DNA of 64,000 nt from an uncultured bacterium (GTDB lineage: Bacteria; Chloroflexota; UBA5177; JANWHV01), in NCBI GenBank assembly GCA_963827235.1, contig CAWHAE010000008.1, forward strand, positions 224,001 through 288,000, read 5' to 3'. The notes beneath the pieces are model-generated. The model had not been told where the DNA came from. It ran no database searches and saw only the letters and a program-made list of their open reading frames with translations. Made by a program: the position numbers and the translations under genes. Shown here piece by piece: positions 1-39,647 of this stretch. Numbering within the stretch: position 1 is the stretch's first letter; each line of letters starts with the position of its first letter.

Positions 1-245
1 GGGGTCGGAACCGGCGGACGATAGGCACCAAACTGGCCTTGATTTTCCTGTGCGGCTCGCAGCGCGGCCCGTACGTCGACCGACGGCAGCGTCCTGGCAA
101 CCGGCTCAGCCGCTTGGTGCGCGTCTACCTGGTGATGCTTTGCGCGCTTGGCCTCGGCCTCGCATGACGGGCAAACGGTCTTCTTTAGCGATGGCGTCTT
201 GAAAGGCTTTCCGCATACGGAGCAGCGCACTTTGACCTTGTTCAT
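1..245 (-). CDS. Zinc-ribbon (CxxC...CxxC) hypothetical protein, runs off the window edge
   Basis: Manual translation MNKVKVRCSVCGKPFKTPSLKKTVCPSCEAEAKRAKHH..., GGAG/GAGG upstream of the ATG at 245, open to base 1; not in the ORF track. Confidence 0.7.
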   Translation of the reverse strand, partial: MNKVKVRCSVCGKPFKTPSLKKTVCPSCEAEAKRAKHHQVDAHQAAEPVARTLPSVDVRAALRAAQENQGQFGAYRPPVPT

Positions 246-494
246 CACCCTCATCTCCGCCCATGTCGACCTGCCGCCGTGGAGCGGCGCCAGGCTAGGT
301 TCGTCCCCGCTCAACAGCTACACCGTGCCTGCAACGCAGCACCGGCGAGCGCGTGCACGTTCTCACTGTACCTATATAGCACATCGCACATCACGACTCC
401 GTCCTTCGCGGCGCGGTTTGCACACTGCGATGCCGGCGCGCGACTGCCTGGCAGCAGCTCCGCGTGTCTCTTGCCTGTCTCAAACCCTACCGAT

Positions 495-989
495 CTAGGT
501 GCTAAACTTGGCCCATAGCCTGGGGCAAAGCAGTGGGAGCTCGCTGTCATCCAGCAACGTAGCATCTCGCGGCGGCGATCGTCGATGACGCGTGGGCATC
601 TCGCGTCCCATGCGCCGTTCGTATGCGTATTGCGCCACATACAACATGCTCTCGCACTCGGCGGAGTCATCGAGATCTATGACATCTGCCAGTGAGTCGG
701 CGTCGGCCACCGCGGCTTCGTACACATCTTCGCCTTTGGCGATGAGCCATCCCGCAAAGTACTCAAAGCCGGCGTCCGAGGTGCCGTAGTTGATGATGTA
801 CGCGGCGGCCCAGAGTTTGGGCTGATAGGCTTGGGCTACCAGGTCGAATAGCTCACGGTCGAACGCCACGATCGTATTGACAGACTGTTCGACAAGCAGC
901 TCCGTAACGATGCCCGCGGTTCGATCGACCTGATCGCCGCTTTCGGCCCTGGCAAAGGCGATGACCCGCCACACCGTTTCTCGATCCAC
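495..989 (-). CDS. DUF4240-like protein
   Basis: VDRETVWRVIAFAR start; LWAAAYIINYGTSDAGFEYFAGWLIAKG matches the DUF4240 pattern; GTG start at 989. Confidence 0.75.
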   Translation of the reverse strand: MDRETVWRVIAFARAESGDQVDRTAGIVTELLVEQSVNTIVAFDRELFDLVAQAYQPKLWAAAYIINYGTSDAGFEYFAGWLIAKGEDVYEAAVADADSLADVIDLDDSAECESMLYVAQYAYERRMGREMPTRHRRSPPRDATLLDDSELPLLCPRLWAKFST

Positions 990-1226
990 TTCGCCCCCGT
1001 GCCTGGATGTCTCTTCCCGATCAGTAGCGCACACGGTGTATCGCGTCAAAGTGCGTCCAGGGTGCCTGAGTGCGCGGCGCCTCCGACGGGCGTACCAGGG
1101 ATCCCGTGTGGACGGGATTGCCTCGGCGGCGTCCGGCCCAGCGTCGTGCCACCTGCGCGAGCACGCAGGTCCGGGCACTGGGCAATCTGCGAGCGGCAGC
1201 TCCACCCGAGCGATCCGCGGCGGACG

Positions 1227-3020
1227 TCACCGCGCCGCTATCACGCGCATGAGCGTCGCCCCGGCTGCCACGCTCTCTCCCGCGTGCGCGACAATACCCG
1301 CGACGACTCCATCGTGCGGTGACAGCACCTCGTTCTCCATCTTCATCGCCTCGATCGTGCAGAGCACGGCCCCCCCACGCACCTGACTTCCCTCCGTCAC
1401 CCTCATCTCGACGAGCGTGCCGCGCATCGGGCACCGAACTATGCCATCCGACCGGGTCCAGTGGCGCAGGGCCTCGTGACTGCGAACTGAGGTCCTCGCA
1501 GGCTGAGACAGCTCGGCGACGGCGACAACATAGGGCTTCCCTTCAATTGAAACCTGGAATTGTCGTTCGTTGGCGGGCCTCGGCGCAGTCTGTGGCTTTC
1601 GGCCAGCCGGTTCCCTGGAAGATACCGACGGCTGGCGGCCGTTGGGGCGCTCACGCGTACCCTCTCCGTCGACCAGCTCGACGAGCTCGGCCGGAAGATG
1701 GCCGTCGACAAGACGCGGATGCCTCAGCAAGCGCAACAAGCTGGGCACCTCGGTCGATATACCTTCGACTTCGAGCTCACCTAGAGCCCGGATCATCCGG
1801 CGCCGCGACATGTCTGCATCAGGGGCCCAGGCAGTGATCTGGGCGATCAGGCCGTCCGGCAGAGATACCGGATCGCTTCCGGAGCACGCGGCGCCGTCGA
1901 CACGCAGGCCCGGCCCGGTTGGCAGGTGAACATCTGCAACTGTTTCGCCGGGCGATGCTCCGGGCTGTTCGATATCGCCGGCGTGTACACGGCACGAGAG
2001 CGCGTGGCCCATGGGCCTCACGTCGTCTGCACCCAGCCATAGTGGCGATCCTCCGGCTATCCGAAGCTGTGCCTGCGCGATGTCCACGCGGGTGACCGAC
2101 TCGGTGGCGGCCTGCGCTGCCTGAAGGCACCTGGCGGTCTCTAGATAGTAGTACTCTTCGCCGTTCACCAGGAACTCGAAGGTGGCTACGCCGTGGAACC
2201 CGCTCGCCACCACCATCGAGAGCGCGGCGGTATCAAGCCGCCGCCGGAGCGGTTCCGATATGTTCGCGGGAGCGATCTCGACGAGCCGCCGACGCAACGG
2301 CTGAACGGGGCATTCTCGAGAGCCCAAGCTCACGGCGGCACCGTGCATGTCGGCCAGAACGTCGACGTCGACGCGACGTCGTCCCGCGATGAACCGCTCC
2401 AGACAGATTGCATCGTCGGAATAAGACGCCATTCCCTCACGCCGCACCCGACTGATCGCCTGGTTCAAATCATCGGCCTGACGTACGACCTCCTGGCAGC
2501 GTCCGCTCGCTCCGCACAGGGCACGCACCACGATCGGAAAGCCAAGACGCAGTGCGACGATGACCGCATGCGCGTCGTCCCGGATGAGCTCCATCTCGTC
2601 AGGGAAGACAGGCACTCGACAGCTCTCGGCAAGGTTCCTTGCCCGGCTTCTGTCGCCGACCGCAGCCATGGCTTCGGGCGAAGGTCCAACAAAGACCAAT
2701 CCGCTTGCCGTGCAGGCGCGCGCGAAGGCCGGGTTCTCGGACAGCATCCCATAGCCGGGGTGCACGGTGTCGGCCCGCGCCTCCAGGGCGGCCTCCACTA
2801 TCCTCTCTATGTCCATGTACGCGCCGGTCGAGCGGCCGAGTGGGTGGGACTCGTCTGCCATTCGCACGTGCTGGGACAGAGCATCCGCTTCGCTGTAGAC
2901 GGCAACGCTCTCGAGGCCGAGCTCTCGACAGGCCTGGATAACTCGCACCGCGGACTCGCCCCGAGTGGCGACAAGCACCCGGCGCAGCGAGCCGCCGGGT
3001 TTTCGCTCAGAGCCCCTCAT
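1227..3020 (-). CDS. Biotin carboxylase + biotin carboxyl carrier fusion (acyl-CoA carboxylase alpha-like) with degenerate catalytic motifs
   Basis: ATRGESAVRV, HPGYGMLSEN, GPGLRVD and C-terminal EAMKM; ATG at 3020 overlaps the upstream stop (ATGA). Confidence 0.85.
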   Translation of the reverse strand: MRGSERKPGGSLRRVLVATRGESAVRVIQACRELGLESVAVYSEADALSQHVRMADESHPLGRSTGAYMDIERIVEAALEARADTVHPGYGMLSENPAFARACTASGLVFVGPSPEAMAAVGDRSRARNLAESCRVPVFPDEMELIRDDAHAVIVALRLGFPIVVRALCGASGRCQEVVRQADDLNQAISRVRREGMASYSDDAICLERFIAGRRRVDVDVLADMHGAAVSLGSRECPVQPLRRRLVEIAPANISEPLRRRLDTAALSMVVASGFHGVATFEFLVNGEEYYYLETARCLQAAQAATESVTRVDIAQAQLRIAGGSPLWLGADDVRPMGHALSCRVHAGDIEQPGASPGETVADVHLPTGPGLRVDGAACSGSDPVSLPDGLIAQITAWAPDADMSRRRMIRALGELEVEGISTEVPSLLRLLRHPRLVDGHLPAELVELVDGEGTRERPNGRQPSVSSREPAGRKPQTAPRPANERQFQVSIEGKPYVVAVAELSQPARTSVRSHEALRHWTRSDGIVRCPMRGTLVEMRVTEGSQVRGGAVLCTIEAMKMENEVLSPHDGVVAGIVAHAGESVAAGATLMRVIAAR

Positions 3021-3229
3021 CGCGGCAGCTCGGCCTCGTGCCAGCTCGTACGTCCCGCCGGCCACGGTCCTGAGCCACGCAGGTCGTGCAGTACTCCCGC
3101 CTCGGCCCACGTAGCGCAGCCCCGCCTCACTGCCGGCCTGCTCGACTCACTCGCCAGGTAGGCGTCCACGGCAGCCATGATAACCGCTATAGCGTCGTCG
3201 CCGGCGATTGCGCGCGGTAGCTCGAGGAG
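3017..3229 (-). CDS. Small protein resembling acyl-CoA carboxylase epsilon/accessory subunits (start uncertain)
   Basis: DDAIAVIMAAVDAYL helix then ATWAEAG; stop coupled (ATGA) to the carboxylase start; no clear canonical start except ATG at 3178. Confidence 0.45.
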   Translation of the reverse strand, partial: LLELPRAIAGDDAIAVIMAAVDAYLASESSRPAVRRGCATWAEAGVLHDLRGSGPWPAGRTSWHEAELPR

Positions 3230-3332
3230 CTCTTCCTCACCTCTGAGTGCCGGCTCCGTTCGGATCTCCGCCAGAAGTCCGCGACCGCGACCGATCAGTC
3301 GCCGGGAGTCGTGGTCCTCAGGGAGCGCCGGG

Positions 3333-4439
3333 TCATACGTTGAAGCGGAAGTAGACAACGTCGCCATCCTGCATCACATAGTCCTTGCCCTCGAGCCTGG
3401 TGACTCCTCGCTCCCGGGCCGCGGCGAACGAGCCGGCTGCTACCAGCTCGTCGTACGCGGTGACCTCGGCGCGAATGAATCCCCGCTCGATGTCGCTGTG
3501 AATTGTACCGGCTGCTTGGGGCGCCCGTGTACCCTTGCTGATCGTCCATGCCCGAACCTCCGGCTCGCCGGCAGTCAAGAACGTGATCAGGTCGAGTAGC
3601 GCATAGCTTGCTTTGATCATCCTGGGCAGGCCGCCCTCCGGCAGACCAAGCTCCGAGAGATAGAACGACGCCTCCTCCGCTCCGAGCTCTGCAAGCTCCG
3701 CCTCGATCTTTGCGCTGACCGCGACCGCTTCCGATCCTTCGGATCTGGCATGTGCTTCGACCGCCGCGAAGCTAGCTGGTTGCCTCTCGTGCAGCGTCGC
3801 CATATCGGATTCGTCGAGATTGGCGATATAGAGGACGGGCTTGGCGGTGAGGAGGTGCAGCTCTTGCACCACCGGCGCCACGTCGTCTGTAAGCCGGTAC
3901 GTGCGAGCCGGCAGGCCCCGATCGAGGTGGGCGGCCAGGTCTTCGAGGGCTTCCGCTTCGGCGAGCAGTCGCTTGTCCCCGGCCTTCGCCGCTTTCCGCG
4001 AACGATCCGCGCGCTTGGCGACGGACTGCAGGTCGGCCAGGCAGAGCTCGACGGTGATAGTCTCGATGTCACGGCGCGGATCGACCGTGCCTTCCACGTG
4101 CGAGACGTTACTGTCGGAGAAGCACCGCACTACCATGCCGATTGCGTTTACGTTGCGAATGTGCCCGAGAAACTGGTTGCCGAGCCCCTCGCCCTTGCTG
4201 GCTCCGCGAACGAGCCCGGCGATATCAAGGAACTCCATGGTGGCGGGCACAATCTTCTTGGGATGCACCATCTCCGCAAGCACGTGCAGCCGTTCATCGG
4301 GCACCTCAACCACGCCGACGTTGGGGTCGATAGTGCAGAACGGATAGTTGGCAACCGCGGCTCCAGCGGCGGTCAGCGCGTTGAAAAGCGTGGATTTGCC
4401 GACGTTCGGCAGGCCCACGATACCCATTTGCAGACTCAC
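3333..4439 (-). CDS. ychF: Redox-regulated ATPase YchF (Obg family)
   Basis: GIVGLPNVGKST, NYPFCTIDPN, DIAGLVRGASKGEGLGNQFL, C-terminal YFRFNV; GGAGG before GTG at 4439. Confidence 0.97.
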   Translation of the reverse strand: MSLQMGIVGLPNVGKSTLFNALTAAGAAVANYPFCTIDPNVGVVEVPDERLHVLAEMVHPKKIVPATMEFLDIAGLVRGASKGEGLGNQFLGHIRNVNAIGMVVRCFSDSNVSHVEGTVDPRRDIETITVELCLADLQSVAKRADRSRKAAKAGDKRLLAEAEALEDLAAHLDRGLPARTYRLTDDVAPVVQELHLLTAKPVLYIANLDESDMATLHERQPASFAAVEAHARSEGSEAVAVSAKIEAELAELGAEEASFYLSELGLPEGGLPRMIKASYALLDLITFLTAGEPEVRAWTISKGTRAPQAAGTIHSDIERGFIRAEVTAYDELVAAGSFAAARERGVTRLEGKDYVMQDGDVVYFRFNV

Positions 4440-4788
4440 GAAATCCTCCTCCGGGGAGTATACCAGGGCAGCAGAAGGGCCTTGCTCGCCCGCCAGTGAC
4501 TTCCCGGACCCGTGCTGAATGATCCACGGCTTCGGGCCTGCGACCTCGGTGGTCCCGGCAGCGCCGTCGTCTCGACCGTCTCCATGCATGCCAGGCTTGG
4601 TTTCCATCGTCAAGACGTGGTAGGTCGTTGCGCCACAACATCCGGGTGGGCCCGACGAAGGCGCGTTTGGGGCCGGAGTGCATGAGGCAATTGCCGGCGT
4701 TCAGGAGAGACGATACAGTTCCTGTCCGGCGCCGCCGGAACACGCTAAAATAGAACCGGTTTCTGTCATAGAGAGGAGAGCTCACAGG

Positions 4789-5799
4789 ATGCCCCTAGTT
4801 TCAATGCGACAAGTTCTCGACGAGGCTGCAAAAGGTGGGTACGGAGTCGGCGCGTTCAACGTGAACAATATGGAACAGATCCAGGCGATCATGGAGGCAG
4901 CGCTCGAGACCAAGTCTCCCGTGATCATCCAGGCCAGTAGAGGAGCGCGCTCGTATTCGCAGGACAAGTTCCTCTATCATCTCATGCTGGCCGCAGCCGA
5001 GTTATATCCCGATATTCCCCTCGTCATGCACCTCGACCACGGCAACAGTATCGAGACCTGCAAGTCCGCTGTTGACCTCGGCTTCACCAGCGTCATGATG
5101 GACGGTTCGCTCATGCCTGACGGCAAGACTCCGTCCAGCTTCGACTACAATGTCGAGACGACGCGAACAGTTGTGGAGCTGGCCCACGCCAAGGGTGTGA
5201 CCGTAGAAGGCGAAATCGGCGTGCTGGGCGGAATCGAAGACGGGCACGGCGCTGGCGGATCCGGCCTCGAGCACGTGACCGACCCCGACCAGGCAGTAGA
5301 GTTCGTGGCACGGACGGGCGTGGACGCGCTGGCGATTGCCATCGGCACCAGCCATGGTGCGTACAAGTTCAGCAGCAAACCCGACGGCTCTGTGCTCAAG
5401 ATGGATCGCTTGATTGAGATTCACAACCGGCTGCCCAAAGTACATCTCGTCATGCACGGCTCCTCGAGCGTACCTAAGGACCTGCAGGACGTAATCAACC
5501 AGTACGGCGGCAAGCTGCGGCCCACCTGGGGTGTGCCGGTCGAGGAGATCCAGCTTGGAATCCGCAACGGTGTGCGCAAGGTCAACGTGGACACGGACAA
5601 TCGCCTGGCCATTACGGGTGCCATCCGCAAGGTCTTCGCGGAGACTCCCGAGAAGTTCGACCCTCGCGACTATCTCAAGCCGGCACGAGAGGCGATGAAG
5701 AAGGTCGTGGCTCAGCGCATGACCCAGTTCGGCCAGGCGGGCCACGCCGGCGACTACGCGCCGATTTCACTGGCCGACATGATCAAGTCCTACGCCTGA
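4789..5799 (+). CDS. fba: Class II fructose-bisphosphate aldolase
   Basis: [35 protein letters not shown]; AGGAG upstream. Confidence 0.95.
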
Positions 5800-5977
5800 C
5801 ACGCCCTCGCCATCGGGCGGTCGAGACTTGGGAGTTTGTAGTATGCTCGCGGGTTTCGGGAATGGTTCCCGCAACCCGCGACCTGTGTTGGTTGGCGCCC
5901 GAGTGGCGGCGAGCGTGGCGAGGACGACCGCCGGTTCAGCACGGCGCGGTTGGTAACCCGTGAGGCGCTGGCAAGCA

Positions 5978-6136
5978 ATGGAAGAGACTGATCACCAAGG
6001 CGATGTCGACGACGGCCTGTCGTGGATGGCGCTACTCGTGACGTTCGTCGTGCTCGCCGTAATCGTTGGGCTCGTGCTGTTCTTCAAGCTCAACCTGTTC
6101 GAAGGCGGCACGTCACCGCTGGCGCCGACTACCTGA
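5978..6136 (+). CDS. Small single-pass membrane protein (52 aa)
   Basis: Manual translation MEETDHQGDVDDGLSWMALLVTFVVLAVIVGLVLFFKLNLFEGGTSPLAPTT; clear hydrophobic helix; below the ORF-track cutoff. Confidence 0.6.
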   Translation: MEETDHQGDVDDGLSWMALLVTFVVLAVIVGLVLFFKLNLFEGGTSPLAPTT

Positions 6137-6193
6137 TAGAGAGTCACCCGCCGATATCGGCATCGCGCGCTGTAGCAGCGCCACGGGACAGCG

Positions 6194-7267
6194 TCAGGCC
6201 CTGCCCGGACGCGCTATCCTACCGATCTTGAGCAAGGTGCCCACGGCTGGAACCGCGTCGGGCGCACGCTCCACGACCTTCAGGAAGTTGGCGGTCATTT
6301 CAGCGTACGCTTCCGATTTGTAGGTCTCTATCTCGCCTGCATCGCAGATTCGGGCAATCTCCGGATCGATCGGCAGCCGTCCCAAGAGCGGTGCGCCGGT
6401 AAGTGCCACCAGGTGCTGTCCCTGGCTGGCCCCGAACAGCTCGTACCGTTCGCCGCTATGCGGCAGGACGATATAGCTCATATTCTCGACCGTGCCCAGA
6501 ACAGGCACGTCGAGCTTCTGCGCCATGCGCACTGCTTTGGCGACGACCATCGTAGCCAGACCCTGGGGAGTGCTCACCACGATCACGCCGTCAAGTGGCA
6601 GGGCTTGCATGGTCGTCATCGGAGCGTCGGAGGTGCCGGGAGGTAGGTCGACAAGCATAAAATCGAGGTCGCCCCAGTCCACGTCACTGTAGAACTGCTT
6701 GATGGCGCCTGCAACCATCGGGCCCCGCCAGATGACAGGCTGTTCTTCGGATTCGAGGAGCAGATTCATAGACATCACGGCGATGCCCGTCGACGTCTTG
6801 GGCGCCTCGATGGTGCCTTCAATCATGGCCTTTACGGGCAGGCCGAACATCTTCGGGATACTCGGCCCGGTAATGTCACCGTCCAGGATGCCGACGCGAT
6901 AGCCTGAGCGCCTGAGGGTAACGGCCAGCAGACCGGTTACTAGCGACTTGCCCACTCCCCCCTTACCGCTCATGACGGCAATCACGTGCTTGATATTCTC
7001 TCGCCGGTCCGGCATAGAGGACTGGCGGTTGACGACGTTGATCTTCTTGGGCGGTGGCACAGCGCCAGTGGCAGCGAAGCGGTTGAGGTCCGCCAGCAGC
7101 GCCTCCATTTCAAGCGAGTGCGTTCGAGCGCCGCCCGCGATGGTCTCGTAGGTGGACACGTGGCATCCGGTGCAGGGCAATCCGTGGGCCCTGAACACCT
7201 GGTCGATGCCGGGAAACGCGTCGACTACCTGGCGGATGATCTGATCTTGGGTAATCTCGGTGGACAT
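6194..7267 (-). CDS. mrp: Mrp/NBP35 (ApbC) P-loop ATPase with N-terminal DUF1858-like CxxC domain
   Basis: SGKGGVGKS, DGDITGPSIP, VIWRGPM, DLPPGTSD, ENMS; N-terminal HGLPCTGCH. Confidence 0.92.
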   Translation of the reverse strand: MSTEITQDQIIRQVVDAFPGIDQVFRAHGLPCTGCHVSTYETIAGGARTHSLEMEALLADLNRFAATGAVPPPKKINVVNRQSSMPDRRENIKHVIAVMSGKGGVGKSLVTGLLAVTLRRSGYRVGILDGDITGPSIPKMFGLPVKAMIEGTIEAPKTSTGIAVMSMNLLLESEEQPVIWRGPMVAGAIKQFYSDVDWGDLDFMLVDLPPGTSDAPMTTMQALPLDGVIVVSTPQGLATMVVAKAVRMAQKLDVPVLGTVENMSYIVLPHSGERYELFGASQGQHLVALTGAPLLGRLPIDPEIARICDAGEIETYKSEAYAEMTANFLKVVERAPDAVPAVGTLLKIGRIARPGRA

Positions 7268-7429
7268 GTCTTGCCGATCCCGCTAGTGCATACATGCGCG
7301 CGACGTCACAGTCGAAGGGCAGAGCAGCCAGTCTGTCACGCTTCCATTCTACCTGCGGCGGCACTGCCCGGTCATACCACGTCGCCGAACGCCGCGGAGG
7401 GACCCACGCCGCTTCAGCGCCGGCGAGCG

Positions 7430-8140
7430 CTAGAGCAGACGGTGTGGAGGTGGTGGAAGCACATTTTCCGGCCAGTGTTGCGCTCGCGTCGTAGTCGCCT
7501 TGTGCTCCCACCGCACGTAGACGTACGTAGCAGCGACAACTACCAGAAGAATGATCACGCCGATGTAGATGTTGTGCCGGAAGAACCTCATGGCATCCCA
7601 CCAGTGCTCGCCGAGCACTTGCCCGGCGACCAATAGGCCAAACGACCACACGAAGGCAGCGCCGGTCAAGACGAAGATGTAGAGACGGTACGGCACGCCG
7701 AAGATGCCGGCGAGCGCAGGCACGTACGCGCGAAGAATCGGCACCAGCGGTCCGTACATCAATATCGGCGTGCCGCGCCTGCCAATCCAGGCCTCGATGC
7801 GATCGATTCGCTCCGGTCGGAGCATGACGTACTTTCCATAACGATCGAGCGCGACGCGCCCATAGCGGCGGCTGACGTAGTAGAGCAGTGAGTTGCCCAT
7901 CAAGGTGGCCGCCATGGCGAAGAGGCCCATGAGCACCAGCGCGATCTTGCCCTGCGAGGCCAGGAAGCCGGCGCTGAGAAGTACAACCTCACTGGGCAAG
8001 ACAGGAAGCGGTACGCCCACCTCCTGAATCGCGATCAGGAAGAACACCAAGCAGTAGATCCAGAATCCGTCCGCGCCGCGAAGAACATCGATCGTGTGGC
8101 CGTCGGCGTCGCCGAGAAGACTCAGTAGCCACACGTTCAA
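7430..8140 (-). CDS. DedA family membrane protein
   Basis: EVGVPLPVLPSE, GNSLLYYVSRRYG, VPILRAYVPALAG. Confidence 0.88.
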   Translation of the reverse strand: MNVWLLSLLGDADGHTIDVLRGADGFWIYCLVFFLIAIQEVGVPLPVLPSEVVLLSAGFLASQGKIALVLMGLFAMAATLMGNSLLYYVSRRYGRVALDRYGKYVMLRPERIDRIEAWIGRRGTPILMYGPLVPILRAYVPALAGIFGVPYRLYIFVLTGAAFVWSFGLLVAGQVLGEHWWDAMRFFRHNIYIGVIILLVVVAATYVYVRWEHKATTTRAQHWPENVLPPPPHRLL

Positions 8141-10705: not shown

Positions 10706-12204
10706 ATGGCTGCCCAAGGGCATAACCTGCGCGCATTCGGTGCCGCTGCTCTGAGCCCCACCGCACTGTGGCGCACGCTTCGCTCGATGACGTTCGCCAT
10801 CGTCATGCTGTTGGTGATTCTCTGCATTGTGATTGCCGGCAGCTTCATGCCGCAGGACAACGGCATCAGGCTGGTCTATCAGTCGTGGTGGTTCTACGGT
10901 CTGAACTTCGTGCTCATGCTCAGTATCGTGAGCTGCGTGGCACGCCGCGTTCCCGCCGTATTTCGCTCGTCGTTTCGCGTGCCTGTCATGCACAGGCCCG
11001 ACTTCTACCGCGTGGGAGACACGGCGCGCCAAGTCTCCGCGCCCGTCGACGTCGATCGTACTGCCGACGCGGTGGAACGTGTCCTGCGAGCAAGCCATTA
11101 TCGCGTTGCCGTGAGAAGAGACGGTTCGGACGTTTACTTGCTGTCCGACCGCTTCCGCGCCATGCGCTTGGGTACCCTGGTGTCCCACGCGAGCATCGTG
11201 CTTATGGTCGCGGCCATTGCCTGGGGAGCGCTCGCGGGCTGGCTGGACAGGTCGGTTCAGCTTGAGGCGGGCGGCCCGGCCGTGGCAGTGGGCCACGGCA
11301 CAGGGCTGCTGATCAGATCCGACTCGTTCGACTTTGGGTTGTACCCAAACGGCACACCGCGCAACTTCGCCGACGATCTAACCATCATCGAGAATGGCGG
11401 TGCCGGGCCGTCGCGTCACCAGAGAATTGACGTCAACTCCCCGTGGTATTACGGCGGCATGTTCGGCGTAGACGTCCACCAGGCCGACTATGGCATCGGC
11501 GCCCGGCTGCTGGCCATCGACACGTCCGACAAGAAGCCGGCTCTGCTGCCATACTGCCTCGTGCAGTTTTCGTCACAGCCCGACTGCACGCAGGAGGCCC
11601 CTGCCCTGCTGTTGCAGCCGGCGGGAGACGGCAGCTACACAGCCGGCGGGTGGCGGCTTGGCCGCATTCTACCTGCCTGATCAGGACCTCGCTGTCACGC
11701 TCTCCTTCCACGACGCGGTGCCTGAGCAGCATCTCGGCGATCTGGCGGTCATCACCGTGGTCAGGCCGCCGCGAAAGTCGGGACAGAGCATGAGCATCGT
11801 CAAAGAGGCGCTCGACGTGCCGGTGTCGCTGCACAGCTTCAACGGCCGGCAGGAAATGGTCACGGACCGGCCTATCGACGTGGGCAGCCTCCGCCTTGCC
11901 ATGCTGATCCGCCGAGAGTCCTTTATCAATATCGGGCACAATCCGGCGGTGCCGTTCTATCTTCACATCATTTGCGCTGATTCTGCTCGGCTTGGTCAGC
12001 GTTCTCTACTTTCCGTTCAGCAGGATGTGGCTGTATGTGACGCCTGCGGGCGATTCGCGCACGGGAAGCACGATTCTGATGCGCGGCTCGGCCGAGAAGA
12101 CGAAGCAAGGCTTCAGGCGACGATTTAGTGACATTGCCGCGCGCATAGAGCGCGAGCTGGCAGCGATATCTAGTGGCCATCATTCGGGGAGCGGAGAAGC
12201 ATGA
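10706..12204 (+). CDS. resB: Cytochrome c biogenesis protein ResB/Ccs1, interrupted by two apparent +1 frameshifts (~11649, ~11958)
   Basis: LVYQSWWFY, conserved His in LVSHASIV, IDVNSPW and HNPAVP-TM-RMW spread over three frames; stop overlaps the ccsA ATG. Confidence 0.8.
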
Positions 12205-37267: not shown

Positions 37268-39647
37268 TCACCTTCGCGGCAGTACCACCGCCTGTTTGAT
37301 TCCATCTGCGACGACCGTGCCGGGGCGAGAGCGATCCTGGAGCGGCAGATCCCGCACTTCCAGCACGATCGCCCTCCCTGCGCCGTCCACCGCTTCAAGG
37401 GAAGCCCGTTCGTCGACGCTGAACACGCTTACCACGGGGCCCGACTTGTCGCTGATGCGTATGCTCTTCACTCCGCTGCCGTCGCGCCCCTGGACCGGGT
37501 ACTCGTGGACGGCAGTCCTGCGTCCAACCCCGGCGGCCGTGAGGACCACTATCTGCGACGTACCGTGCACCACCATGCCTTGCACGACCGAGTCGCCTTC
37601 GTCGAGACGTATGGCACGCACGCCGCCCGCTACCCGCTTGGTTGCCCGCACGTCGTCGAGCGAGAATCGAATTGCTTTACCCTGCCGGGTGTGGAGCAGT
37701 GTCTCCGCCTCCCCTGACGCTGTCTCGACCGTGAGCAGCTCGTCGGCCTGGTCGAGGTTGATTGCGACGACGGGCGCCGAGCGCGCGTGCAGGTAATCCG
37801 CGGCAGGCGTGCGCTTCACCTGGCCCTGCCGGGTACAAAAGACCAGGTAGGGCGGCACATTCGCGCCGACGGCGACTACGGATACGATCCGCTCGCCGGC
37901 CGCCAGGTCTACCAGCGTCGCAACAGCTACGCCGTGATCGCTCCTCCGTGCCACCGGCGAGATCTTGTGTACGAAAACGCCGTGGCAGGCGCCGGAGGCG
38001 GTGAACAGGAGAAGCAGGTCCCGCACATTACACGTGACGTACTCGTGAGGCGTCTCGCGGGCACTGGCGCGCCCGCCGAATTGATCGAGCCGCTTGAGCG
38101 TGCCGTCGTCACCAAGAGCGACCACAGTCGATAGGTTGGGCACCAGATCCTCGATACTGGTTGGCACGTTGGCCGCGTCGTCGACGATGCGCGTGCGGCG
38201 ATCATCGCCGAAGCGTTGCTGCAGGTCGCGAAGCTCGGCGACCATGATGTCCAGGATTTTGCGAGGCGAGGCCAGCACGGCCTCGAGCTCGCGGACCAGG
38301 CGCTGGACCTCGACGCAGCTCGTCCACGATCTTCTTCCGCTCGAGCTGGGAGAGTCGAGCCAACCGCATGTCGAGGATGGCGCGTGCCTGGGTGGGGGTA
38401 AGGCCCAGCCGCTCCACCAGGGCCTTGAGCGCGGCGTCCGTCGACTGCGCTGCTCTGATCAGAGCGATCACCGTGTCGAGAGAGCCCAGTGCCTTGTTGA
38501 GGCCTTCGAGCACGTGCAACCTGCTGCTTGCCTCGTCAAGGTCGAATTGTGTGCGCGCTGTGATCACCGACTTGCGATGATCGATGAACACGTTGAGGGC
38601 GCGCTTGAGAGTAATCTGGTGCGGGCTGCCGTCGATAAGACCCAACATGTTGATGCCGAACGTGATCTCCAGGTTCGACTTCTGATAGAGAGTCGTGAGC
38701 ACCTTGGCTGGGTCGGCGTCTCGCTTCAAGTCGATGGCGATGCGCATGCCACTGCGGTCGGATTCGTCTCGCATGGCGGCAATGCCCTCAAGCTTTCGAT
38801 CTCGTACCAGGTCAGAGATGGACTCGATGAGCTGCGACTTCTTCACCTGATACGGCAGCTCGGAGATTGCGATCGTCTGGCGCCCTCTTCCGTCGTCTTC
38901 AATGCTGGCCACGCCGCGCAGCAGGATGCGGCCCTGACCGGTGGCGTATGCGCGATCGATCCCTTCGCGACCGACGATGATGCCCCCGGTGGGAAAGTCG
39001 GGCCCAGGCATGGCGGCGACGAGAGCGTCGGACGGTGTGTCCGGCGCGTTCGCCAGCATGATGATCGCTTCGCTCAGCTCGCGCAGATTGTGAGGCGGCA
39101 CATTCGTCGCCATACCCACGGCGATGCCGTCGGCTCCATTCAGCATGAAGAGCGGCACTTTGCCCGGCAGTACCGCCGGCTCCCGCATCGAGCTGTCGAA
39201 GTTGTCGACGAACGGCACGGTGTTCTTCTCAAGATCGGAGAGCAGCTCCTCGGCCAGCTCGGTGAGGCGCACCTCGGTATAGCGCATCGCCGCCGCGTTG
39301 TCGCCGTCGATCGAGCCGAAATTGCCTTGTCCATCTACCAGCGGGTAGCGCAGGCTGAAGCTCTGCGCGAGACGGACCAGCGCATCGTATACAGCTGTGT
39401 CGCCGTGCGGGTGGTACTTGCCGAGCACGTCGCCCACGATGCGGGCGCTCTTCTTGTATGCGCTGTCGTGGCGAAGGCCAAGCTCGTACATGCCGTAAAG
39501 CACGCGACGCTGCACCGGCTTGAGCCCGTCGCGGACGTCAGGCAGGGCACGCGCGGTAATGACGCTCATCGCGTAGTCGACGTAAGCCTCGCGCATCTTG
39601 TCGTCAAGATCGACGTCCAGGATCGATAGAGCGGGTGCGTCTGCCAT
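37268..39647 (-). CDS. parC: Type IIA topoisomerase A subunit (ParC-like/GyrA paralogue) with one apparent +1 frameshift at ~38315
   Basis: [36 protein letters not shown]; beta-pinwheel CTD in a second frame lacks QxRGGxG in blade 1. Confidence 0.8.

Follow-up and report, generated by a model that had tools for sequence, protein, structure and literature searches.

A putative pseudo-biotin-carboxylase with an intact biotin carrier domain, apparently kept by selection in a small clade of uncultured bacteria

The locus described here lies on the minus strand of a 64,000-nucleotide stretch of DNA from an uncultured Chloroflexota bacterium (the window), where the gene order is ychF, a small ORF, a gene for a fusion of biotin carboxylase (BC) with BCCP (biotin carboxyl carrier protein), and a DUF4240 gene. 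The fusion gene (1227..3020, minus strand) encodes a protein of 597 amino acids, P0001, with its ATG at 3020-3018 and its stop codon at 1229-1227. The initial annotation had described an uninterrupted 597-codon BC-BCCP frame at these coordinates, which proved right; the frame is unbroken on the minus strand, and reading the same stretch on the plus strand gives many stops. The ATG at 3020 was chosen over an in-frame GTG at 3110 on the basis of orthologue lengths of 596-597 amino acids. The small upstream ORF (3017..3367, minus strand) comprises at most 116 amino acids with an uncertain start, and its stop codon overlaps the ATG of the fusion gene (ATGA). Directly downstream, the DUF4240 gene (495-1205, minus strand; PF14024, E 8e-30) probably starts later than 1205. 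No second BC was found in the window, and no carboxyltransferase (CT), decarboxylase or BirA gene was present among the 53 window ORFs scanned. A search of 300-4900 for promoter- or terminator-like sites, a weak test, found none, and there were no Rfam matches in 1-8000.

The chain of about 600 residues consists of a BC fold, a β-hairpin and a C-terminal BCCP domain, in an order supported by Pfam, AlphaFold and Foldseek. The BC domain (residues 12-445; 1686..2987, minus strand) matches PF00289, PF02786 and PF02785 and keeps its fold with a decayed active site. The hairpin (residues 484-503; 1512..1571, minus strand), assigned from the structural model and from identity within the clade described below, is equivalent to the tetramer-forming hairpin of Chloroflexus aurantiacus BC1 and of AccA3. 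The BCCP domain (residues 525-597; 1230..1448, minus strand; PF00364, E 1e-16) contains the biotinylation motif EAMKM (residues 557-561; 1338..1352, minus strand), with Lys560 encoded at 1343-1341. In the AlphaFold model (mean pLDDT 77), the secondary structure and fold of BC are complete and are followed by a two-strand hairpin and BCCP; the hairpin strands (485-492 and 495-502) lie between disordered linkers and have a pLDDT of only about 55. The top Foldseek match of the model is AccA3 (9yx2), over the whole chain and with an E-value of 3.5e-52. By descent and architecture, P0001 is an acyl-CoA carboxylase α subunit of the AccA3/Chloroflexus BC1 type.

Among solved structures, the clade profile best matches C. 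aurantiacus BC1 (WP_012257262, PDB 8HZ4; PMC11077971; E 8e-129), which resembles P0001 in its length of 596 amino acids, its BC-hairpin-BCCP order, its EAMKM motif and its residues E408 and Y32. According to the kinetic data given in PMC11077971, BC1 is active (kcat about 20/s) and has intact motifs, whereas P0001 lacks N290, R292, E296, K238, K159 and H209 (E. coli numbering). Mycobacterial AccA3, which acts with AccE5 and AccD4/AccD5 (PDB 9T97, 9YX2), has a hairpin between BC and BCCP as in P0001, and the T. fusca AcCCA/B/E system is described as having a small ORF just upstream of the α gene (PMC7835884), as at the P0001 locus. In contrast to the present case, AccA3 is catalytic; the P0001 locus has no adjoining CT gene, and no resemblance of its small ORF to AccE could be detected.

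Alignment of P0001 with E. coli AccC, taken from the K-12 genome, bore out all six motif changes that had been reported from the sequence. GDK is replaced by GDR (K116 by R124), and the ATP-lid loop KASGGGGGRG (E. coli K159-G168) reads RALCGASGRC (residues 166-175; 2496..2525, minus strand) through the changes K159 to R166, G164 to A, G165 to S and G168 to C. A second degenerate stretch (2286..2378, minus strand) extends from RRVD (residues 215-218), which replaces RHVE (H209 to R216, E211 to D), to QPLRRR (residues 240-245), which replaces QRRHQK (H236 to R, Q237 to R, K238 to R245); the changes of H209 and K238 to Arg are fixed in the clade. The catalytic loop EMNTRIQVEH (E. coli E288-H297) has become ETARCLQAAQ (residues 294-303; 2112..2141, minus strand), with N290 changed to A296, T291 to R297, R292 to C298, V295 to A and E296 to A302; N290, R292, V295 and E296 are lost, and T291 is Arg, in all five lineages of the clade. 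RINAED of active enzymes reads RVHAGD (residues 344-349; 1974..1991, minus strand), where R338 is kept in four of the five lineages and N340 is lost in all of them.

For a quantitative comparison we used 17 core catalytic residues, a list that, like most of the residue roles given here, is taken from the E. coli BC literature. P0001 lacks K116, K159, G165, H209, H236, K238, N290, R292 and E296; the other eight (G166, E201, Q233, E276, E288, Q294, R338 and D382) survive. The Arg of EMNTR is not simply missing but has moved one place, to position 291, in all five lineages. Across the 301 BC-family proteins fetched (a 302nd row, the small upstream ORF, was dropped), 16 or 17 core residues are kept in 293, 15 in one and 13 in another, while the six clade proteins keep only 6-9 each. 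K159, H209, K238, N290, R292 and E296 are absent from all five lineages, which retain MKM. In the bicarbonate and catalytic set (K238, R292, Q294, V295, E296, R338), the clade retains only Q294 (5/5) and R338 (4/5). Within the ATP/Mg set, K159, G164, G168, H209 and N290 are lost in every lineage, K116 is kept in one, E201 in five, E276 in four and E288 in three. The glutamate that serves as the base for bicarbonate is presumably E296, which is consistent with the title of PDB 3G8D. This base is described as strictly conserved in BC (PMC11077971), and in E. coli BC the single changes N290A and R292A are reported to lower activity by factors of 250 and of 200, in that order (PMC8667948). Because each of these changes is costly alone and the base glutamate is lost as well, we infer with some force that P0001 is catalytically inactive. 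The NCBIfam BC/AccC models point in the same direction, since the best of them reach 338-420 bits on P0001, every one under its cut-off (TIGR00514, 359 against 626.5 bits; NF006367, 371 against 597). Judged by its residues and by the curated scores, P0001 would thus fall outside the active biotin carboxylases.

The loss is shared by orthologues. A protein search covered 5.8 billion proteins, of which the best 8,000 candidates were scored; it lists near-full-length proteins only, so that broken copies are hidden. Among the candidates scored were P0002, a near-identical copy from another source, and four orthologues (P0003-P0006) of 596-597 amino acids with 51-59% identity to P0001. P0002 differs from P0001 at three residues (6, 58 and 60) and contains all motif changes, which rules out an assembly error as their source. 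After P0006 there is a gap in identity, and the next proteins are intact ones at 44% or less. The five lineages show pairwise identities of 51-67%, and all of them are open. A profile built from the five found no further clade members among the proteins searched; run exhaustively against 50% representatives, it matched one clade cluster (P0006, 1066 bits), the next match scoring 527 bits, and none of the other 149 proteins of that search had fewer than 15 of the 17 core residues. The clade thus comprises five 90% clusters and one 50% cluster. A GTDB scan with the clade alignment, whose generic patterns matched at least 599 stretches, contained no clade member among the 80 loci kept; these are other carboxylases with best segments 28-41% identical to the clade, and the highest of them (L003) is an intact accA-accB-accC locus. 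An Atlas search of P0001 returned ordinary BC clusters only. The clade is rare, and its hosts are uncultured bacteria.

In a quick tree, the five lineages group together as a single clade with a long stem (SH-aLRT 100). A more careful tree of 27 proteins, for which the linkers had been dropped together with every column that all five lineages have lost, supports the clade at 100/100 and groups it with the intact proteins P0007-P0010 at 86/83. P0007 as the sister of the clade was supported at 88 in the quick tree and was left unsettled by the careful one (p-AU 0.42). The trees point to descent from inside the AccA3/BC1-type α family, in which three intact lineages were seen near the clade (P0007; P0008-10; P0011/12/14) and three nearby intact relatives carry the NCBI name 'Chloroflexota bacterium'.

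The decay is selective. Near-invariant sites, defined as at least 95% conserved across 142 intact proteins, number 136 in BC and 16 in BCCP. Of these, 48 in BC and 14 in BCCP are kept by every one of the five lineages (p=7e-5), whereas 34 in BC and none in BCCP are lost from all of them. Within BC, the sites kept throughout the clade include 3 of the 25 that we take to be ligand sites and 39 of the remaining 105 (p=0.017). Within the clade, BC is 60% identical, the hairpin 69-70%, BCCP 67-68% and the linkers 22-29%; the linkers that flank the hairpin reach only 22-24% against 70% for the hairpin itself. The tip branches of the clade are longer for BC (0.21-0.42) than for hairpin and BCCP together (0.07-0.29), whereas the order is reversed in intact relatives, for instance P0007 (0.30 and 0.44, respectively). 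The bias of the protein searches towards near-full-length proteins leaves this contrast between domains unaffected.

A decaying pseudogene or an assembly artefact could be suspected from gyrA and a resB-like gene of the window, both of which appear to be frameshifted, from the high GC2 of the gene (0.52 against 0.40-0.50 in 11 comparison genes) and from the fact that broken copies would be hidden from the protein listing. This explanation is nevertheless very improbable, given five open lineages of 596-597 amino acids at their present divergence and the confirmation of the sequence by P0002. When the window gene was evolved neutrally to 58.5% identity in a simulation of substitutions only, with indels ignored, 0 of 300 pairs and 17 of 600 lineages stayed free of stops, and the identity profile was flat, near 58% everywhere, unlike the observed contrast between linkers and hairpin or BCCP. 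On this comparative evidence, the clade protein is a maintained pseudo-enzyme and not a pseudogene. The initial annotation had proposed a catalytically dead BC that is kept by selection together with an intact carrier, and the analysis supports this view: decay is centred on the ligand sites and conservation on the BCCP, the hairpin and the dimer face, the biotinylation site described as perfect is intact in P0001 and reads EAMKME in all five lineages, and the substitutions are shared by the four orthologues. The opposite pattern, with intact orthologues and decay in this lineage only, did not occur.

Ten dimer-face residues (R16, E23, E301, D307, P360, G362, R366, R401, A405 and E408) are invariant in all five lineages; the list contains what we take to be the dimer face and was drawn up after the conservation results, which makes it descriptive and biased as a test. 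P0001 also keeps Y32, a barrel contact in C. aurantiacus BC1. The dimer face is partly remodelled, since R331 is lost and the changes G305 to R and A398 to S are fixed in the clade. The resulting residues R311 (2088-2090, minus strand) and S405 (1806-1808, minus strand) lie on or near the dimer face, at positions where G305 and A398 are near-invariant in intact enzymes (141/142), and could set partner specificity. In C. aurantiacus BC1, two BC dimers are described as being held together by an eight-stranded barrel made of four hairpins, and the change E408A is reported to dissociate BC1 partially (PMC11077971). In mycobacteria, the barrel is reported to enclose a helix of AccE5 that serves as a tether to the CT hexamer (PMC13612425, PMC13012033, bioRxiv 2026.02.06.704326), and AccA3 tetramers are reported to be asymmetric, with eight BC-BCCP per six CT sites (PMC13612425). 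The hairpin of the clade is nearly the same as that of the intact P0007, and a mixed barrel is plausible because of this closeness.

It is improbable, in our view, that the pocket has been re-purposed or has stayed weakly active, for example as a nucleotide or polyanion sensor or for another ATP-grasp reaction, with R297 taking the place of R292. Such a role could be read from the retention of E201, G166, R167, R208, E241, T274 and Q294 in all five lineages, from the fixed changes of H209, K238 and T291 to Arg, a possible sign of an anion site, and from segments 147-161 and 207-238, whose identity is 76-77% within the clade and 64-65% in close relatives that are intact. Across the lineages, however, K159 is replaced by R/S/R/L/R, E288 reads E/D/E/G/E and N290 A/A/T/V/T, and one member (P0006) has G at E276 and Q at R338. 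A new residue is fixed at no more than 10 of the 34 lost sites; for sites that are ordinarily variable, the figure is 34 of 152. Because of this variation at K159, E288 and N290, the losses in P0006 and the few fixed sites, the pocket seems to have been abandoned and not adapted to a new task. An Arg-rich new pocket was unsupported both by the fixation rate and by net charge, which lies within +1 of that of E. coli in four of the five members. A gain of constraint on the lid helix 147-161 was also considered, and its contrast of 76% with 31% in 200 random control quintets shrank to 76% against 64% when near relatives were used.

That the dead BC is retained as an assembly module for a biotinylated arm is, overall, very probable. 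Our leading explanation, to which we assign a probability of roughly 45%, is that the protein acts as a carrier and scaffold subunit of an acyl-CoA carboxylase and that its biotin is charged in trans. Its BC domain would be unable to make carboxyphosphate, while BirA would be predicted to biotinylate Lys560. Assembly would proceed via the BC dimer face and a barrel of four hairpins; the partner would probably be an active BC-BCCP or BC from another locus, and the small upstream protein might act as an ε tether to a CT hexamer of the PccB/AccD5 type. The biotin arm would then be carboxylated in trans at the active site of a neighbour and hand its CO2 to the CT. In such a complex, the pseudo-BC would provide arms and structure without chemistry and thereby determine how many BC sites there are per carrier. 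For pyruvate carboxylase, hybrid tetramers are described in which engineered subunits with a dead BC are complemented by way of intermolecular BCCP paths (PMC5895798), and charging in trans is ranked first because of this rescue and because the assembly surfaces match those of intact relatives. Against it count the lack of a second BC in the window and of a CT or BirA gene among the window ORFs scanned. It also counts against it that an intact paralogue in each host would lead one to expect a mirrored set of five, compared with the three intact lineages seen near the clade.

The same surfaces could instead serve inhibition. The protein might join active BC dimers, or fill CT sites with uncharged arms as a biotin sink, and so throttle acyl-CoA carboxylation. 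E. coli hybrid BC dimers with one dead subunit are reportedly strongly inhibited, a dominant-negative effect that would favour a regulatory reading, as would the conserved dimer face and hairpin. Pseudo-enzyme regulators of such complexes are known, namely plant BADC and MSMEG_0435, the latter as described in PMC13012033. An inhibitor would not need a biotinyl-lysine, however, although EAMKME is invariant in the clade, and the gene lies behind the housekeeping gene ychF without a promoter-like site in the region searched by the weak test above. We regard inhibition as unlikely.

The other function that had been proposed is that of a carrier for an ATP-independent decarboxylase or transcarboxylase. 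In such an ATP-free carboxyl shuttle, the protein, with or without ε, would sit on a CT hexamer of the PccB/AccD5 type in the absence of any active BC, and the dead BC would be no more than an oligomeric base for the arms. Biotin would move a carboxyl group from (methyl)malonyl-CoA to another acceptor, that is, transcarboxylation, or would release it by decarboxylation. The conserved BCCP combined with loss of its own biotin/bicarbonate pocket (N9, F84, Q237, R292, V295 and Y381 in 5/5) agrees with this idea. Intact paralogues did not turn up as a mirrored set, so an active orthologue may have been replaced by the gene, and BCCP also changed on the stem (0.48 substitutions/site; five derived fixed residues), as expected for a new partner. 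Transcarboxylase 1.3S, MmdC and the C-terminus of OadA are likewise biotin carriers without a functional BC. These carriers have no BC fold, are encoded beside CT or decarboxylase genes and, in ATP-free systems, act as stand-alone proteins of about 130 amino acids, so that some 430 BC residues would not be required. In contrast, no CT, decarboxylase β subunit or transcarboxylase was found among the window genes scanned, and the NCBIfam models for MmdC (52 bits, cut-off 200) and OadA (60 bits, cut-off 756) match only the BCCP part of P0001, far under their cut-offs. We rank the shuttle second, ahead of inhibition, and consider it doubtful, also in its most developed form, a transfer machine in which a dead-BC tetramer, tethered by ε to the CT hexamer, works as a multi-arm biotin shuttle that passes carboxyl groups from one acyl-CoA to another or removes them. 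If true, it would give the lineage an ATP-free route to or from malonyl- or methylmalonyl-CoA, and a further BC-BCCP discussed below (P0020) would be a second protein that has set out, independently, on such a course. A subunit of a mixed carboxylase suits the conserved assembly surfaces no less well than does a decarboxylase or transcarboxylase carrier.

For a carboxylase subunit charged in trans, the small upstream ORF is a candidate for an ε (AccE-like) subunit. Its position and size match those of ε genes, and no CT gene precedes it. Its single-sequence model (pTM 0.39) shows two helices without a long linker or an N-terminal strand. Three choices of start gave no Pfam match at E<=10, the four weak PDB matches include no AccE chain, and neither NCBIfam, plasmid nor Foldseek searches gave a match; the only homologue found was the ORF itself, with a best Atlas value of 0.84. 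A further search on its ε identity, over 11,828 short frames, yielded no motif matches and a best phmmer E of 0.16. In T. fusca, the corresponding gene order is given as CT-ε-α (B-E-A) (PMC7835884).

No report of a natural, selectively maintained pseudo-biotin-carboxylase was found in targeted searches of the open-access literature. Plant BADC is a close parallel in one respect, as a non-catalytic paralogue of an acetyl-CoA carboxylase subunit that is described as keeping its interaction surfaces, like P0001 (bioRxiv 2025.12.30.697075, 2026.03.30.715394). It is, however, the inverse of P0001: BADC is a BCCP without the biotinyl-lysine, whereas P0001 is a BC without catalysis that keeps Lys560. 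MSMEG_0435 of M. smegmatis is also an inactive homologue of a biotin-enzyme domain that is tied to an AccA3-type complex; as characterised in PMC13012033, it is urea-carboxylase-like rather than a BC, lacks urea-carboxylase residues and sequesters the biotin of AccA3 while carrying none. None of these non-catalytic paralogues combines a dead BC and a biotin site in one protein. The decayed active site of the clade, next to a conserved carrier and conserved assembly surfaces, suggests a subunit without catalysis, either carrier or regulator, of a type that we have not found described. Few motifs in central metabolism are as invariant as those of BC, so that a clade that keeps the carrier without these motifs is unexpected. 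It offers a natural test of two standing questions. The first, that of half-sites reactivity, is whether a BC dimer needs two active subunits; the second is whether AccA3-type tetramers, with their 8:6 mismatch of BC and CT, allow a carrier arm to be charged in trans. The name 'biotin carboxylase', which P0006 carries in its source, can overstate the carbon-fixing capacity of metagenome-assembled genomes.

Several further sequences were noted in the course of this work. P0105 was considered as a carrier-less BC and complementary partner and was rejected, because it reads as a frameshifted relative of P0010 with its C-terminus out of frame; its BC motifs are intact, and it is close to P0010. 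P0020 (600 amino acids, outside the window) retains 13 of the 17 core residues, with the changes E276 to A, E288 to A, H236 to R and G165 to I and the carrier motif QAMKM. It forms a long branch beside the intact P0041 and P0066, outside the pseudo-BC clade, and appears, from this one sequence, to be a second, independent BC-BCCP that is losing catalysis. Within the window, gyrA (37271-39647, minus strand) is split into overlapping frames (38205-39647 and 37271-38278), probably by an assembly indel. A cytochrome c biogenesis gene before ccsB (10706-12128, plus strand) is apparently split as well (10706-11680 and 11490-12128); it had no family match, and we presume it to be ResB-like from its position. 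A gene at 6194-7267 (minus strand) encodes an Mrp/NBP35-type ATPase with an N-terminal DUF1858 domain.
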